From the NCBI GenBank assembly GCA_046735335.1, contig JBKPTE010000046.1, positions 32,080 to 96,079 on the forward strand: DNA of 64,000 bases. Reading direction: 5' to 3'. The DNA is from Acidobacteriota bacterium. GTDB lineage: Bacteria; Acidobacteriota; Vicinamibacteria; Vicinamibacterales; 2-12-FULL-66-21. The notes beneath the pieces are model-generated. The model was not told where the DNA came from. It saw nothing but the letters and a program-made list of their open reading frames with translations, and ran no database searches. Below, one piece after another: positions 8,301 to 58,794 of the stretch. A program made the translations under genes and the position numbers. The number at the start of each line of letters is the position of its first letter. Within the stretch, counting starts at the first letter, position 1.

Positions 8301-8859
8301 CGCGCGCGGAGAATTCGCCGGGCTCATCCGTCGGATCTTCACGGCGGTAGCCCGACTCGACGAGACGATCGACGAGATCGAGGGGAGAGATGTCGTCGCC
8401 GGGACGGAGCAGCAGGCCCGTGCCCCGGAGGCGCGCGGGCGGGCTCAGCCGTGGGAGCAGCGCCGCCGCGGACGCAATCGCCACGCGCGCCGAACCGTCC
8501 GCCAGGCCGTACAGCGCACGCGCCCGAGCGGATGCGATGTCGAAGTGCGGCGCAAGCCCGCGATACGGATCGACCTCGTGAGACGGGAAGGGCAGGACTA
8601 CATGTGCCGCCTCGGCCTCCGACAAGCCGTCGAGCGCGCCGAGGAAGAAGCGCAGGTCGGCGGTGAGCTGCTCGACATCCGCATCGGACGGAACGACGAG
8701 CACGACCTTTTCGCGCGACGCGGCGGCCGCCGCGTAGAACGCCTTGGCGGCGGACGTCAGGCCCGCGACCGGCTGGCCCGGCGCGCTGCGCGGCAGGCGC
8801 GACGCCGCCGTCTTCAGGAGCGCGCGGAGCGAGAGCGAAGTCGATGTGGATGGTCCCAT
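5356..8859 (-). CDS. mfd: transcription-repair coupling factor
   Basis: 1167 aa from ATG 8859 (the track ORF runs on to 8982 through a repeat). SF2 translocase motifs LLCGDVGYGKTEVAMRAA and LLIVDEEQRFGV, a CarD-like RNAP-interaction region (GDLVVHVDHGIGVF), and a conserved C-terminal domain. Confidence 0.95.
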   Translation of the reverse strand: MGPSTSTSLSLRALLKTAASRLPRSAPGQPVAGLTSAAKAFYAAAAASREKVVLVVPSDADVEQLTADLRFFLGALDGLSEAEAAHVVLPFPSHEVDPYRGLAPHFDIASARARALYGLADGSARVAIASAAALLPRLSPPARLRGTGLLLRPGDDISPLDLVDRLVESGYRREDPTDEPGEFSARGGVVDFYPAGARQPIRLEFIGDTIESLRTYDASTQRSTRPLDQAAIVPLQELLADADTPDRSATILEYFASARPIVFVSEPDEVRAALAKLRTQIDDSYGETVLRNQTAPPPESLVIAPDDVAELLERGTPLQTLAVESDGGVHVACQPAMEFAGRVPDWVAELRRTRERGDTVVFVAHSQGRAERVIEMLADYQVPASPIDRGEDSHARAVLVTVGHLSQGFRLPDATLQLWAETDVFDEERRTHERRRSAAQTFLSDFRDLKVGDLVVHVDHGIGVFVGLKRIEVGLEPQEFMELRYAGEDKLFVPVERLDLVQKYTGAARPSLDRLGGTTWEKAKTRVKKAMRDMAEELLKLYASRRAVSGHAFSPDTHWQEEFEEAFEWELTPDQQSAIADIKRDMEAPSPMDRLLCGDVGYGKTEVAMRAAFKAVMDGKQVALLAPTTVLAFQHLKTLTDRFAAFPVRIEMVSRFRSKAEQKQILSDLEAGKVEIIVGTHRLLSKDVKFRDLGLLIVDEEQRFGVAHKERIKQLKKRVDVLTMTATPIPRTLNMSLAGIRDMSIIETPPKDRLSIQTNVVKFDQPVISRAIRTELERGGQVYFVHNRVESIYSLGNLITRLVPEARIAVGHGQMAEDALERVMVDFVGHKYDVLLATTIIENGLDIPNANTIVINRADRYGLSQLYQLRGRVGRSDRRAYAYLLIPPEEALSPVAKKRLAAIREFSDLGSGFRVAALDLEIRGAGNLLGGEQSGHIEAVGFDMYMKLLEQTIKELKGEEIEDEARANVNLRVDLRIDENYIPDMNQRLTVYRRMAGVRSEAELRRVLDELRDRYGSPPPSIENLAEYALIRVLADGVGVESIDREGQVVVLKFRPEARLDPAWLFRLVQERQDIQLTPPATLKLDMRKLPTGGGRPTPAARPVGGAKAPPPKASWWTTRATAGEVTPGFSRDEILKPAKEDPRGEGGLFSRLSGLLRELSEGVGVR

Positions 8860-8905: not shown

Positions 8906-8946
8906 GGTTGGAGGTTGGTTGTTGGAGGTTGGTTGTTGGATGTTGG
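8906..8946. repeat. tandem 14-nt repeat GGAGGTTGGTTGTT x2.6
   Basis: Identical copies at 8910..8923 and 8924..8937, then GGATGTTGG. Lies in the divergent mfd / PEP-CTERM spacer. No inverted partner seen nearby. Confidence 0.85.
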
Positions 8947-9117
8947 CTTGCCGGGCCGTAGCGCGAAGCGCGGCTTGTGCACCGTCGCGCGAAGCGCAGA
9001 GGTGGAAGGGCGGGCCTATGGCTCAGGTCCTGTCCTTTGCGTGCGCTCTGGGGCGCGCGGCGATCTACGGCGCTGATGGCAAACGTGTCGGGAATTGCCG
9101 GCAGAAAGGGGGGACTT

Positions 9118-20504: not shown

Positions 20505-20682
20505 GGTTCACAAGGTTCACGGGGTTCACAGGGTTCAGGGCTGGGTTCTCAGAGTTCCTGGTTCTCAGGTTCTTTGGTTCGCAGGTTCTCGGTTCGCAGC
20601 CCACGAACCCTGAAGAACCGATGAACCGCTGCGAACCCATGAACCCAGCCCTGAACCGCGTGAACGCCGTGAACCCCGAACC
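20505..20682. repeat. tandem-unit inverted repeat filling the parB-selD spacer (GGTTC x10 then GAACC x8)
   Basis: GGTTC at 20505, 20514, 20523, 20532, 20544, 20560, 20568, 20576, 20584, 20591. Centre GGTTCG-cagccca-CGAACC at 20591..20609. GAACC at 20605, 20615, 20623, 20633, 20641, 20653, 20671, 20678. A 17-nt exact complement pair: 20532..20548 with 20641..20657. Confidence 0.9.
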
Positions 20683-26195: not shown

Positions 26196-26354
26196 GGTTC
26201 TCGGGTTCTCTCGGGTTCTCAGGTTCTCAGGTTCTCGGGTTCTCAGGTTCTCGGGTTCTCAGGTTTCTCGGGTTCTCGGGTTCTCAGGTTCGAGAGGATC
26301 CCCGAACCCCCGAACGTGAGAACCTGAACCTGAGAACCTCAGAACCTTGGAACC
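26196..26354. repeat. tandem-unit inverted repeat filling the jag-mnmE spacer (GGTTCTCR x11-12 then GAGAACC-type x6)
   Basis: GGTTC at 26196, 26204, 26214, 26222, 26230, 26238, 26246, 26254, 26271, 26279, 26287 (GGTTTC at 26262), mostly on an 8-nt period. Centre GGTTCG-agaggatccc-CGAACC at 26287..26308. GAACC at 26304, 26320, 26326, 26334, 26342, 26350. Confidence 0.95.
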
Positions 26355-32390: not shown

Positions 32391-35035
<2,645 letters not shown>

Positions 35036-35036
<1 letters not shown>

Positions 35037-35116
35037 TGAATTGGTGAACTCGTGAATCGGTGAATCGAAATTCACCAACTCAATTCACCAACTCACCAAT
35101 TCACCAACCCACCAAT
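35036..35116. repeat. tandem-unit inverted repeat filling the gyrB-gyrA spacer (GTGAAYNN x4 then YYCACCAA x5-6)
   Basis: GTGAA at 35036, 35044, 35052, 35060 (8-nt period). Centre GGTGAAT-CGAA-ATTCACC at 35059..35076. YYCACCAA at 35071, 35084, 35092, 35100, 35108. Ends 5 nt before the gyrA ATG. Confidence 0.9.
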
Positions 35117-35121
35117 TACAG

Positions 35122-37602
35122 ATGTCAGAAATCGCCGCGACCCGCGTTCCCGTCAACATCGAGGACGAGATGAAGCGCTCGTACATGGATTACGCGATGA
35201 GCGTAATCATCGGGCGAGCGCTGCCGGACGTCCGCGACGGCCTGAAACCGGCGCATCGGCGCGTGCTGTACGGCATGCGGACGATGGGGCTCGCGTCGAA
35301 CCGCGCGTACCGCAAGTGCGCGAAGATCGTCGGCGAGGTGATGGGGAACTTCCATCCCCACGGCGACGCGTCGATCTACGACACGCTCGTCCGGCTCGCG
35401 CAGGAGTTCAACATGCGCTATCCCCTGGTCGACGGCCAGGGGAACTTCGGGTCGGTCGATGCGGATCCGCCGGCGGCCATGCGCTACACCGAGGCGCGCC
35501 CCGAGCCGCTCGCCGAAGCGATGATGGCGGATCTCGACAAGGAGACCGTCGACTTCGTCCCGAACTACGACGAGAGCACCGAAGAGCCGACCGTCCTTCC
35601 GACGACGTTTCCCAACCTGCTCGTGAACGGGTCGGCGGGCATCGCCGTCGGCATGGCGACCAACGTGCCGCCGCACAACATGCGCGAGGTCATCGACGGC
35701 GTCCTCGCGGCGATCGAGCATCGCGCCGGCACGAAGCAGGAGCGGCTCAAGGCGGTGCTCCGCGCCGTCCCCGGTCCGGACTTTCCGACCGGCGGCTTCA
35801 TCGTCGGGCGCACGGGCGTCTACCAGGCGTACACGACCGGCCGCGGCGCGATCACCGTCCGGGCACGCGTGACAACGGAGGAATCGAAAAAGGGAGAGAA
35901 GACCTCCCTCGTCGTGACGGAGATTCCGTATCAGGTCAACAAGAAGCGGCTCATCGAGAGCATCGCGGAGCTGCACCGCGAGAAGACCATCGAAGGGATC
36001 TCCGATCTGCGCGACGAATCCGATCGAGACGGCATGCGGATCGTCATCGAACTGAAGCGCGGCGAAGTGCCGGAGGTCGTCCTCAACAATCTCTACAAGC
36101 ACACCCAGCTTCAGACGACGTTCGGCGTGATCATGCTCGCGATCGCGGCGGGCCGGCCGAAGATCCTGACGCTCCTCGACGTCATCGAGAACTTCGTCGA
36201 GTTCCGCCGGGAGGTTGTGCGCCGGCGGACGGAATTCGAGCTGCGCAAGGCGGAAGCGCGCGCGCACATCCTCGAAGGCCTGAAGATCGCGCTCGACCAC
36301 CTCGACGAGGTGATTAAGCTCATTCGCGGATCGAAGAGTCCCGTGGAAGCGCGCGACGGCCTGATCGTGCAGTTCAAGCTGACGCAGATCCAGGCGCAGG
36401 CGATCCTCGACATGCAGCTCCAGCGGCTGACGGGCCTCGAGCGGCAGAAGATCCTCGACGAGCTCGTGGAGCTGATGAAGACGATCGAGCGGCTTCGCGC
36501 GATTCTCTCGAGCGACGAACTGTTGATGCAGGTCGTAATCGGCGAGCTGAAGGACGTGCGGCAGAAGTTCGGCGACGATCGCCGGACGGAGATCATCGAC
36601 GAGAGCGGCGAGTTCCGCATCGAAGATCTGATCGCCGACGAGGACATGGCGATCACGGTGACGAACACGGGGTACATCAAGCGCACCGCGATCTCCACGT
36701 ACCGCGCGCAGCGCCGCGGCGGGAAGGGGCGCATCGGGATGCGCACCCGCGAAGAGGATTACGTCAGCCATCTCTTCGTGGCGTCGACGCACGCGTACAT
36801 CATGATCTTCACGAATCGCGGCCGCGCCTACTGGCTGAAAGTCCACGAGGTCCCCGACGTCGGCCCCGGCGGCAAGGGGAAGGCGATTGCGAACCTGGTG
36901 CAGCTCGAGGAAGGAGAGCACATTGCGGCGCTCCTGACGGTCAAGGAGTTCCCGGCCGAGGACGGCCAGCAGTTCGTCGTGATGGGCACCCGGAAGGGTG
37001 TCGTGAAGAAGACGGACCTCTCATCGTTCCGCAATCCGCGCGCTGGCGGCATCATCGCGATGGGCATCGAGGACGGAGACGCGGTGATTGCCGTTGAGCT
37101 GTCCGACGGGCACGAGCAGATCTTCCTCGGCACGCACGACGGGATGGCCATTCGCTTCGACGAGAACGACGTCCGGTCGATGGGACGCGGCGCCTACGGC
37201 GTCCGCGGGATCAGCCTGCGCGAGGGGGACGAGGTCGTGGCGATGGAGGTCGTCCGCGAGGGCGGCACGCTCCTCACGGTCGCGCAGAACGGCTACGGCA
37301 AGCGTACGGGCCTCGACGAATACCGCCTGCAGTCCCGCGGCGGCGTCGGCATCATCAACATCCAGACGAGCGATCGGAACGGCAAAGTCGTCGGCATCGC
37401 GTACGTCCACGACGACGACGAGTTGATGCTGATCAGCCAGCAGGGCATGATCCTGCGCATGAAGGCGGGAGACATCCGGACGATCGGTCGCGCCACCCAG
37501 GGCGTGCGGCTGATCGAGATGGAAGAAGGCGACGCGGTCGTCAGCGTCGCGAAGCTCGCGGAGAAGGAAGGGGACGAAGAGAGCGAGCCTACGCCGGAGT
37601 GA
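35122..37602 (+). CDS. gyrA: DNA gyrase subunit A
   Basis: Active-site region AAMRYTEAR, GyrA-box/beta-pinwheel C-terminal domain, acidic tail. Confidence 0.97.
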
Positions 37603-39878: not shown

Positions 39879-39968
39879 TAGCGGGTGCGACGTGCCTCGT
39901 GCGGGTGCGTCGAGCGGCGTGCGGCGTGCGGGTGCGTGGCGCGGGTGCATTGGCGCGGTGTGTGAGAA
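39879..39968. repeat. GC-rich array of GCGGGTGCG-type units upstream of uvrD
   Basis: GCGGGTGCG at 39881, 39901, 39928; GCGGGTGCa at 39941; GCGCGGTGTGTG at 39954. Confidence 0.75.
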
Positions 39969-39974
39969 GGAGCA

Positions 39975-40400
39975 CTAGGCAGCGAATCGAAATAGGAAGA
40001 CGAACAAGAGGGACGCAGTCGCTTCCATGCTGGCAAGCACCTGCATCTTCTGGCGCCGCATCCCATAGAGCAGCTTCTGCAGCCGTTCGATCTGATCCTG
40101 GCGCGGCAAGGCCTGAACTGCTGTACATAGACAGAGCCGAACGGCGATTTCGAGCTGTGTATCGAGCTCGCACGACGAGCCGATTGCCGTGTTGATGAAC
40201 CGCAGCGTCCACTTAGGGGCCTTAATCGGCTGCCCTTCGGCGACATTCGAGAGAACGGATACGGCGGCTCTTCGCATTTGCGAGACCAGACCGTCGCGCT
40301 CCTCGTTTGGGAATTCGGCGGTCAACCGCTATGTCGACTCGACGACATCCATGCCCACTTACCCCGCCACGAGTTCTCGAAAACCTCGGTTTTCGCGCAT
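39975..40400 (-). pseudogene. four-helix-bundle protein gene (23S rRNA IVS / Avd-like family) inactivated by two nonsense codons
   Basis: AGGAGG lies 6 nt upstream of ATG 40400. Translation reads [16 protein letters not shown](40361..40359)[12 protein letters not shown](40331..40329)[32 protein letters not shown]... The stops fall where family members have Q and Y (F.dL.vWqkA..L...iYkLt..FP.eE). The track only shows the TTG-started remainder, 39975..40325. Confidence 0.65.
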
Positions 40401-40496
40401 CGTGATCCTCCTCGAGTACGCAGTTGGTGCGTACATCGCGCCCAAGTCAAAGAGCCGGGCGCTGGTGTTTCGGGACGAGGCAATTGCCGAGCCGTA

Positions 40497-40553
40497 CTCC
40501 GCACCCGCCCGCACACCGCGCGCCGCACTGCCCGCCGCACGCGCGTGCTACGA
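40497..40553. repeat. GC-rich array of the reverse-complement units (CGCACCCGC type) upstream of leuC
   Basis: CGCACCCGC at 40500..40508 is the exact reverse complement of GCGGGTGCG. It is followed by CCGCACACCGCGC and GCCGCAC...GCCGCACGCGCG. Confidence 0.65.
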
Positions 40554-58704: not shown

Positions 58705-58794
58705 GGAGAGATGGCCGAGTGGTCGATGGCGGTGGTCTTGAAAACCACTGTACCCGAAAGGGTACCGGGGGTTCGAATCCCTCTCTCTCCGCCA
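58705..58794 (+). tRNA. tRNA-Ser (anticodon UGA), CCA encoded
   Basis: Acceptor GGAGAGA/TCTCTCC. Anticodon stem GTGGT/ACCAC with loop CTTGAAA (anticodon TGA). Long variable arm GTACCC-GAAA-GGGTAC. T-loop TTCGAAT. 3' GCCA. Confidence 0.92.

Follow-up and report, generated by a model that had tools for sequence, protein, structure and literature searches.

The 85-nt spacer between gyrB and gyrA in a soil acidobacterium (Acidobacteriota, Vicinamibacterales; genome of 5.41 Mb, 66.5% G+C, here G000) is occupied by one member of a dispersed family of hairpin elements, and the same family includes a cassette that carries a PF05635 gene. The explanation considered best, with a probability of roughly 65%, is that the spacer copy derives, in gene-less form, from a PF05635 cassette, and is selfish or nearly neutral, not required by gyrA, and a plausible substrate of RNase III. 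The next paragraphs present the element itself, its family and the cassettes, the situation in related genomes, and the alternatives.

The DNA analysed, here called the window, is 64,000 nt long and corresponds to positions 32080-96079 of contig C46 of G000; coordinates are those of the window unless a contig is named. The taxonomic position of G000 follows from the relatives of its GyrA. The identities of dnaA, dnaN, gyrB and gyrA within it were confirmed with NCBIfam. The repeat element extends from 35036 to 35119, its first base being the third of the gyrB stop codon. The junction consists of the following parts:

32391..35036, + strand: gyrB, DNA gyrase subunit B (NCBIfam, 1174 bits), with the stop codon TAG at 35034-35036
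35036..35067, + strand: 5' arm, four 8-nt units, GTGAATTG, GTGAACTC, GTGAATCG and GTGAATCG (TRF, period 8, 4.0 copies)
35066..35069, + strand: CGAA loop of the central perfect 7-bp hairpin GGTGAAT/ATTCACC at 35059-35076 (sequence and folding)
35070..35114, + strand: 3' arm, ATTCACCA, ACTCA, ATTCACCA, ACTCACCA, ATTCACCA and ACCCACCA (TRF, MFE and pair probabilities)
35112..35119, + strand: right terminus typical of the family, CCAATTAC (comparison with other GGTGAATT loci)
35122..37602, + strand: gyrA, DNA gyrase subunit A (NCBIfam, 1216 bits), whose N-terminus aligns with those of relatives (...PVNIEDEM)

A previous sequence-only reading of this spacer had described GTGAA units at 35036, 35044, 35052 and 35060 on an exact 8-nt period, and a perfect GGTGAAT-CGAA-ATTCACC hairpin at 35059-35076; both can be read directly in the sequence, and TRF calls both arms. 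The statement that the units begin within the gyrB stop codon applies to the last G of the TAG, which is shared with the first unit, the rest of the stop lying outside it. As for the five to six YYCACCAA units counted in the 3' arm, they are found where they had been placed (TTCACCAA at 35071, 35084 and 35100, CTCACCAA at 35092 and CCCACCAA at 35108), but a partial unit of 5 nt, ACTCA (35078-35082), breaks the period, with a 13-nt step from 35071 to 35084. In that phasing the last unit ends at 35115, that is, 6 nt (TTACAG) before the ATG at 35122 and not 5 nt as had been stated; in the division listed above, the last 3'-arm unit is followed by ATTACAG and then by the gyrA ATG. Overall, GTGAA/TTCAC occurs 7 times in 70 nt at the spacer, compared to 1.97 per kb genome-wide. 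This density, the TRF calls and the folding energy given below show that the pattern did not arise by chance.

The two arms differ in their relation to reading frames. The 5' arm has TGA at 35037, 35045, 35053 and 35061, and so provides stops in all three frames within 24 nt; the TAG of gyrB is followed by a second in-frame stop, the TGA at 35037-35039, supplied by the first unit. The 3' arm is free of stops in every frame. Among the termini, the right one is present and the canonical left one, GTAATTG, is absent from the gyrB-gyrA copy. With regard to the other end of the gene, the gyrB ORF is 881 aa long and its NCBIfam match begins at residue 37, so that the true start may lie 3' of 32391; a later start would enlarge the 9-nt gap between dnaN and gyrB.

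No GGAGG-like motif occurs in the 25 nt before the gyrA ATG, which agrees with the earlier remark that gyrA has no Shine-Dalgarno sequence. This is nothing special in G000, where an SD core (GGAG, GAGG or AGGA, at -18 to -4) precedes 28% of the predicted starts and 11% of random coding 15-mers. The gene set (4408 genes, 88% coding) was obtained with a crude codon-usage caller, and for this reason the SD frequency and the distances to starts are approximate; within the accuracy of these start calls, the figures suggest that initiation in the lineage is mostly SD-independent.

Folding predicts a stem of about 25 bp with a 4-nt loop. The MFE of the spacer RNA is -31.2 kcal/mol, compared to -16.3 +/- 2.9 kcal/mol for 200 dinucleotide shuffles (z = -5.07, 0 of 200 as good), and the stem is retained when the spacer is folded in a 300-nt context. 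Pairing with the 5' arm takes up about the first 30 nt of the 3' arm, whose last two units are predicted to stay open; in the 300-nt context the mean unpaired probability is 0.73 for 35101-35121 and 0.70 for the gyrA AUG. Folding thus predicts what had been proposed, a C/A-rich leader left single-stranded by the greater length of the 3' arm. A gene for RNase III was found in G000.

Other signals were searched for in the same region. The consensus scan returned no promoter or terminator consensus in the spacer and no intrinsic terminator in 34700-35400, and on this basis both a promoter for gyrA within the operon and Rho-independent termination were rejected; the stem is followed by CAACCCACCAAUUACAG, which does not contain the U-tract of a Rho-independent terminator. 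A G-quadruplex was likewise rejected because the GGTGAATT unit holds GG doublets only, with no tract of three or more G. Searching Rfam 15 at the gathering score gave nothing in the spacer, the sole match in the window being a tRNA at 58705.

The gyrB-gyrA element presents the traits of an inverted tandem array, namely units of 7-9 nt in at least three copies, a nearby reverse-complement array with which they pair, and dispersed intergenic copies. Genome-wide TRF revealed an excess of periods 7 and 8, with some 400 short-period arrays made of a handful of unit families. When an array locus is defined over the whole genome as a TRF array whose period is 7-10 and whose copy number is 3.5 or more, G000 contains 356 loci, 298 of which (84%) are intergenic, although intergenic DNA is 11.6% of the genome; these loci make up 3.6% of the intergenic DNA. 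As for the orientation of the neighbouring genes, co-directional, convergent and divergent pairs are represented in approximately background proportions; many loci are single-armed, and ten unit families account for 324 of the 356.

The GGTGAATT/AATTCACC family comprises 36 loci, 32 of them two-armed, which are 80-160 nt long and have predicted folding energies from -16 to -70 kcal/mol. These elements usually span their gap almost from end to end, with about 10 nt left before the neighbour gene on either side, and their copies have the common ends GTAATTG...CAATTAC. Pattern searches gave 82 hits in G000, compared to 0 for the control, and 36 of the 40 clusters of hits are intergenic. Because the same element is found at 36 loci between unrelated genes, the gyrB-gyrA hairpin is not gyrase-specific. 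Over the whole family there is a weak signal of cognate pairing between the arms (17.2 versus 15.8, permutation p = 3.5e-4); the gyrB-gyrA copy ranks 17 of 32, its arms pairing no better with each other than with those of other copies. The asymmetry of arm length with respect to the direction of transcription, 13 versus 6 by hand count, is not significant across the family.

The window holds 5 array loci in 64 kb, the genome as a whole one in every 15 kb on average, and there is no enrichment near the origin. Two of them share the architecture of the gyrB-gyrA spacer with a different unit, as had been noticed from the sequence:

20505..20678, no strand assigned: member of the family with GGTTC units, parB-selD gap (TRF); the congener G004 has a short remnant only
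26196..26347, no strand assigned: GGTTCTCR x 12 followed by GAGAACC-type x 6, jag-mnmE gap (TRF); no array in G004

Other array units are GGTTCTAG and GGAGGTT. The latter family is represented at 8906-8946 by a single-armed array (GGTTGGA x 6), located between a gene ending at 8859 and a gene starting near 9076, and the orthologous interval of G004 has no array. The genomes compared are metagenome-assembled and several contigs end in arrays; contigs C100, C147, C22, C5, C64, C144 and C93 begin or end inside tandem arrays, and since arrays break the assembly, their copy numbers are probably underestimated.

At some loci the arms are separated by a small gene. Eight PF05635 matches and three GxxExxY loci were found in G000, and every one of these 11 is enclosed by inverted tandem arrays, the unit differing from locus to locus. 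Chance would hardly produce this, because an estimated 4% of the genome is within 250 nt of an array. A gene-bearing copy exists for 9 of the 10 array families. The same arrangement holds outside G000, as inverted arrays flank 9 of 9 PF05635 loci sampled in nine further genomes of Vicinamibacterales, and the 20 small-gene loci examined in detail are all two-armed.

For the GGTGAATT family, the gene-bearing copy is in the recX-alaS gap. C70:3174-3464 is a PF05635 gene (36.4 bits against a cut-off of 33.8; match to PDB 2rld with E = 0.002), with a GGTGAATT/TTCACCAA hairpin on one side and a further TTCACCAA arm ending in CAATTAC on the other. The gyrB-gyrA copy has the inverted arrays of one unit that form the cassette arms, and it is classed as a derivative and not as a cassette because it has a 4-nt loop and no gene inside. 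As the C70 gene has GGTGAATT arms, the spacer looks like a gene-less copy of this cassette, and sequence comparison suggests that it is a miniature of it. At the same locus (C70:2994-3575, locus L108), recX ends inside the GGTGAATT element, with N-W-stop encoded by AAT TGG TGA, and the same occurs in G012; G004, which has no element at recX-alaS, has a longer recX tail. The right end CCAATTAC at C70 overlaps a TACAAT box 5' of alaS, and this box is kept in G004, G005, G009 and G012.

A second cassette lies in the window itself, in the uvrD-leuC gap:

39881..40535, - strand: PF05635 pseudogene cassette (81.5 bits), with the gene at 40062-40355 interrupted by one TAG
39881-39948 and 40499-40535: arms of this cassette, of the GCGGGTGCG type and of the CGCACCCGC type, respectively (GCGGGTG / CGCACCC arrays)

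In G004 the same gap contains a different, intact PF05635 gene with GGAGGTT arms. The two proteins are 42-44% identical and show no similarity at the DNA level, the flanking genes being about 87% identical. A closer match to the G004 protein, with 73% identity, is the protein of C84 in G000, which also has GGAGGTT arms and is at another locus. Along the same line, only one of 24 relatives, G012, has a close homologue of the C70 protein (65% identity), in the same recX-alaS gap and with GGTGAATT arms; in the recX-alaS gap of G004 there is no cassette. These comparisons show, at the level of sequence, that protein subtype and arm unit travel together across genomes and loci. Three genomes, G014, G009 and G006, have the GGTGAATT family and no close homologue of the C70 protein, with the qualification that G009 is 77% complete and G006 has no match to alaS. 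Because G004, L014 and L008 also have a PF05635 cassette in the uvrD-leuC gap, with arms of other types, this gap is a long-term cassette site.

In the whole G000 genome no transposase, no reverse transcriptase (PF00078) and no RAYT (PF01797) was found. Accordingly, a REP/RAYT system was rejected for want of a PF01797 match, and a mechanism resembling that of DGRs, with Avd plus reverse transcriptase, for want of a PF00078 match. With respect to MITEs, the partner gene of the GGTGAATT family is not a recognisable transposase. The family has inverted termini, and no target-site duplication is definable from pairs of filled and empty sites whose flanks are about 87% identical; at this divergence, about 13%, the boundaries of insertion and the target duplications are illegible.

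Further information came from the comparison with 2.07 Mb of the congener G004. It contains 80 array loci, 38.7 per Mb compared to 65.8 per Mb in G000, and the families differ. No GGTGAATT array, a type with 36 loci in G000, was found in these 2.07 Mb; the GGTTCT family, with 65 loci in G000, is represented by stray GGTTC-type remnants only. Families of G004 that were not seen in G000 are AACTCCC/GGGAGTT, AAATGTTCA and GGTAGTC. The gaps are nonetheless shared to a considerable extent, as 35 of the 102 arrayed gaps of G000 with a G004 orthologue (34%) are arrayed there too, versus 23 of 262 control gaps (8.8%). The odds ratio for co-occupancy is 5.4 (p = 1.6e-8), and about half of the co-occupied gaps hold a different family. 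Eighteen GGTGAATT loci have an orthologue in G004, nine being empty there and nine having a hairpin of another family; at some of the re-occupied sites the right boundary in G004 is identical to the base.

Because of this co-occupancy and exchange of families, particular gaps are long-term homes of hairpins with turnover of the family present. Re-occupancy may be caused by replacement targeted to hairpins, by conversion from a master copy, or by a scarcity of gaps that tolerate hairpins.

The junction itself was inspected in two sets of relatives, and the comparison of spacers that had been suggested for it confirms that the array architecture recurs. In the first set, 15 Vicinamibacterales-type relatives, arrays of 7-9-nt units fill the gyrB-gyrA gap in eight, with the units GGTGCCAA, GGTGCT, GTGCGNN, GGGCRCA, GGGGTTC, GGGYTC and GGGRCTG, and with GGTGAATT in L014; of the remaining relatives one has 20-nt units and six have short, array-less spacers. 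About eight of the 20 GTDB relatives of the second set have junction arrays, among them G012 with a miniature GGTGAATT element and G006 with a remnant. Taken together, about half of 34 relatives have an array at the junction, mostly built of other units; in the closest GyrA clade, which has five members, every junction is arrayed. G004, of the same genus and with a GyrA N-terminus 99% identical, has the junction TAA-GGATTC-ATG. Because this congener does with a 6-nt array-less spacer, the element would appear dispensable for gyrA expression.

The distribution of the units is patchy. Over 25 genomes, the GGTGAATT pattern gave 82 hits in G000, then 135, 63, 45 and 14 in four others, 2 in G024 and 0 in 19, the congener included; the controls gave 0-1. 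In G001, the unit at the junction, GGTGCCNN, is that of this genome's own abundant family, with 141 hits compared to 0-2 for the control, and is near background in two other relatives.

On the reading preferred here, the design of the element would explain how a selfish or nearly neutral insertion survives between gyrB and gyrA. The 5' arm would end translation in all three frames within 24 nt, and the 3' arm, stop-free, C/A-rich and in part unpaired, would keep the next start codon accessible in a genome where SD sequences are rarely used. The element would be tolerated from either side of transcription because it is palindromic, and transcription would read through it because the stem has no U-tract. 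The gyrBA mRNA would then carry a stem of about 25 bp, by analogy a plausible substrate of RNase III, which probably cuts it and so separates the gyrB and gyrA halves of the message. Several findings count against this explanation: no mobility gene was found and no target-site duplication was definable, the left terminus is missing in the gyrB-gyrA copy, G014, G009 and G006 have the family and no close homologue of the C70 protein, and the junction is arrayed in about half of the relatives, versus roughly 7-9% of gaps in general. Such a high occupancy could reflect selection for a hairpin at this place, beyond mere tolerance.

The last point leads to the function that the sequence-only reading had implied, a device for gyrA expression or gyrBA processing. 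In its general form, a selected cis-regulatory RNA of the gyrBA operon would set gyrA translation or the GyrB:GyrA ratio, possibly by uncoupling translation, by protecting the gyrB 3' end after cleavage, or by offering the ribosome an unstructured C/A-rich leader, the unit sequence being free to vary while the hairpin persists. This would suit the junction arrays of 8 of 15 relatives (plus the one with 20-nt units) and about 8 of 20, made of at least seven different units and complete in the closest GyrA clade (5 of 5), given that only about 7% of the gaps of G000 and 8.8% of the control gaps of G004 are arrayed; the stem and the unpaired leader are also confidently predicted, and a heptamer hairpin processed by RNase III is known to control the expression of hmw1A (PMC12721329). 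This proposal is nevertheless unlikely, as the element also sits in 35 other gaps, between unrelated genes and in every orientation, and hairpin-tolerant gaps are co-occupied genome-wide and not only at gyrBA. The same-genus genome has a 6-nt spacer with no copy of the family, and at least 13 relatives have short array-less spacers, those of 8-50 nt or with a 1-nt stop/start overlap among them. Furthermore, relatives do not retain the greater length of the 3' arm (10.6 versus 7.6 units in L001, 5.4 versus 5.4 in L006), and the arms at gyrB-gyrA show no locus-specific complementarity (rank 17 of 32).

Another way to account for the arrays would need no mobile element: replication slippage and hairpin-templated copying would create and alter them where they stand, in which case the families would reflect mutational bias or gene conversion and the small genes would merely be trapped between arrays. 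Orthologous gaps do stay filled while the unit changes (34% arrayed in G004, about half with another family), the gyrBA units of the closest clade share a GGTG core (GGTGAATT, GGTGCCAA and GGTGCT), single-armed arrays are common and no transposase was found in G000. This origin is quite unlikely, however, as the protein subtype follows the arm unit to another locus in another genome (73% versus 42% identity), the termini are conserved across dispersed copies, a family of 36 loci is missing from the congener with half of its sites cleanly empty, and 20 of 20 small-gene loci have two arms. Action at the DNA level, with the element as a cruciform that senses or absorbs negative supercoiling or as an array bound by a protein (a PF05635 pentamer, a nucleoid protein or gyrase), would make sense of a long near-perfect palindrome inside the gyrase operon near oriC and of the physical linkage of PF05635 genes and arrays; E. 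coli REP/BIME elements bind gyrase. It is very improbable, since neither gyrase nor the origin shows an enrichment of arrays in its vicinity, the helical repeat differs from periods of 7-10 nt, and the congener lacks the element.

Several known systems resemble the GGTGAATT element in part. The closest in form are the heptamer arrays described by Rehm et al. (2015, PMC4692102), with the unit GGGAATC in Xanthomonas and GGGGAYT in Nostoc; each Xanthomonas genome has 70-75 convergent inverted pairs. Their unit number varies among related genomes, the single or inverted-pair type is usually kept, and they have no known function (PMC4692102); they have been discussed as G-quadruplexes, and a link with cassettes is not mentioned (PMC4692102). 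The likeness lies in the short tandem units, intergenic and dispersed, often arranged as an array followed by an inverted array and capable of forming a stem-loop. The differences are the length of the unit, 7 nt there and 8 nt here, the lack of G-quadruplex potential in GGTGAATT, and the presence here of about ten families per genome, nearly each tied to a gene-bearing cassette. The cyanobacterial STRR sequences, attributed to Mazel and colleagues in 1990, are reportedly tandem heptamers of several families, intergenic and with no known function; they belong to another phylum and have other units.

The cassettes recall the intervening sequences (IVS) of the 23S rRNA of Coxiella and Leptospira, in which an S23p (PF05635) ORF lies between terminal inverted repeats and the whole is excised by RNase III (Warrier et al. 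2016, PMC4990558). The S23p-bearing IVS are regarded as selfish and have no known means of movement (PMC4990558). Full-length cassettes share with them a PF05635 gene enclosed by inverted repeats, which pair into a long stem; the spacer copy, however, is gene-less and lies between protein genes and not in rRNA, the arms are tandem arrays here and a unique 28-bp repeat there, and cleavage by RNase III is inferred here. PF05635 proteins are also related to Avd, the accessory protein of DGRs (PMC10053308), so that the cassette protein and Avd have a fold family in common, with the difference that G000 has no reverse transcriptase.

With regard to the possible action of the hairpin, the 5'-UTR of hmw1A in Haemophilus influenzae forms a hairpin on (ATCTTTC)n that is cut by RNase III, and cleavage raises expression (Rapun-Araiz et al. 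2025, PMC12721329). There, too, a transcribed tandem array just 5' of a gene is one arm of a long hairpin, and by this analogy hmw1A could be the best experimental model of what the hairpin might do next to gyrA; in hmw1A, however, a single phase-variable locus is involved, the right arm is a unique G-rich segment, and there is no dispersed family. Finally, REP/BIME-RAYT systems and MITEs are likewise short intergenic palindromes dispersed in tens to hundreds of copies, with few gene-bearing copies between the same repeats. Compared to REP/BIME-RAYT, there is no RAYT here, the partner is a four-helix bundle or a GxxExxY protein, and the arms are tandem arrays. Set against the Xanthomonas arrays, the GGTGAATT element is a new family, in a new phylum, with an octamer unit, no G-quadruplex and a demonstrable gene-bearing relative.

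The STRR and Xanthomonas arrays on one side, and the S23p proteins on the other, are two old puzzles of obscure function and origin, and the comparison of G000 with its congener links them in a testable manner. The link is based on the near one-to-one relation of cassettes and families, on the subtype that travels with the unit, and on the absence of the family where the master is missing; the same gaps, including the junction of an essential operon, are taken over by different families. A literature search of limited reach returned no paper tying PF05635/S23p or GxxExxY genes to tandem-array arms, and such a link may have been published. Tentatively, and with appreciably less than an even chance of being right, PF05635 and GxxExxY genes with cognate array arms may represent a widespread, undescribed class of selfish cassettes that seeds most bacterial heptamer and octamer hairpin arrays. 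If so, there would be a match between each cassette protein and the unit that it recognises, hairpins with no gene would be transient offspring, lost once the master copy is gone, as in the congener, and new families would target existing hairpins and repeatedly seize the same gaps. The gyrB-gyrA junction of Vicinamibacterales would be a long-term landing site, at which a hairpin cut by RNase III would set the GyrB:GyrA balance. For annotation, the lesson is that the rest of the genome should be checked before a hairpin in an operon is called a gene-specific regulator.

A minor observation concerns the CGATTGS family, which has 34 loci and no gene-bearing copy in G000. In relatives, GATTGNN/CAATCNN arms accompany PF05635 genes whose products share 31-41% identity with the C70 protein (loci L112-L115 and L117). 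The sequences hint that related proteins may go with related units.
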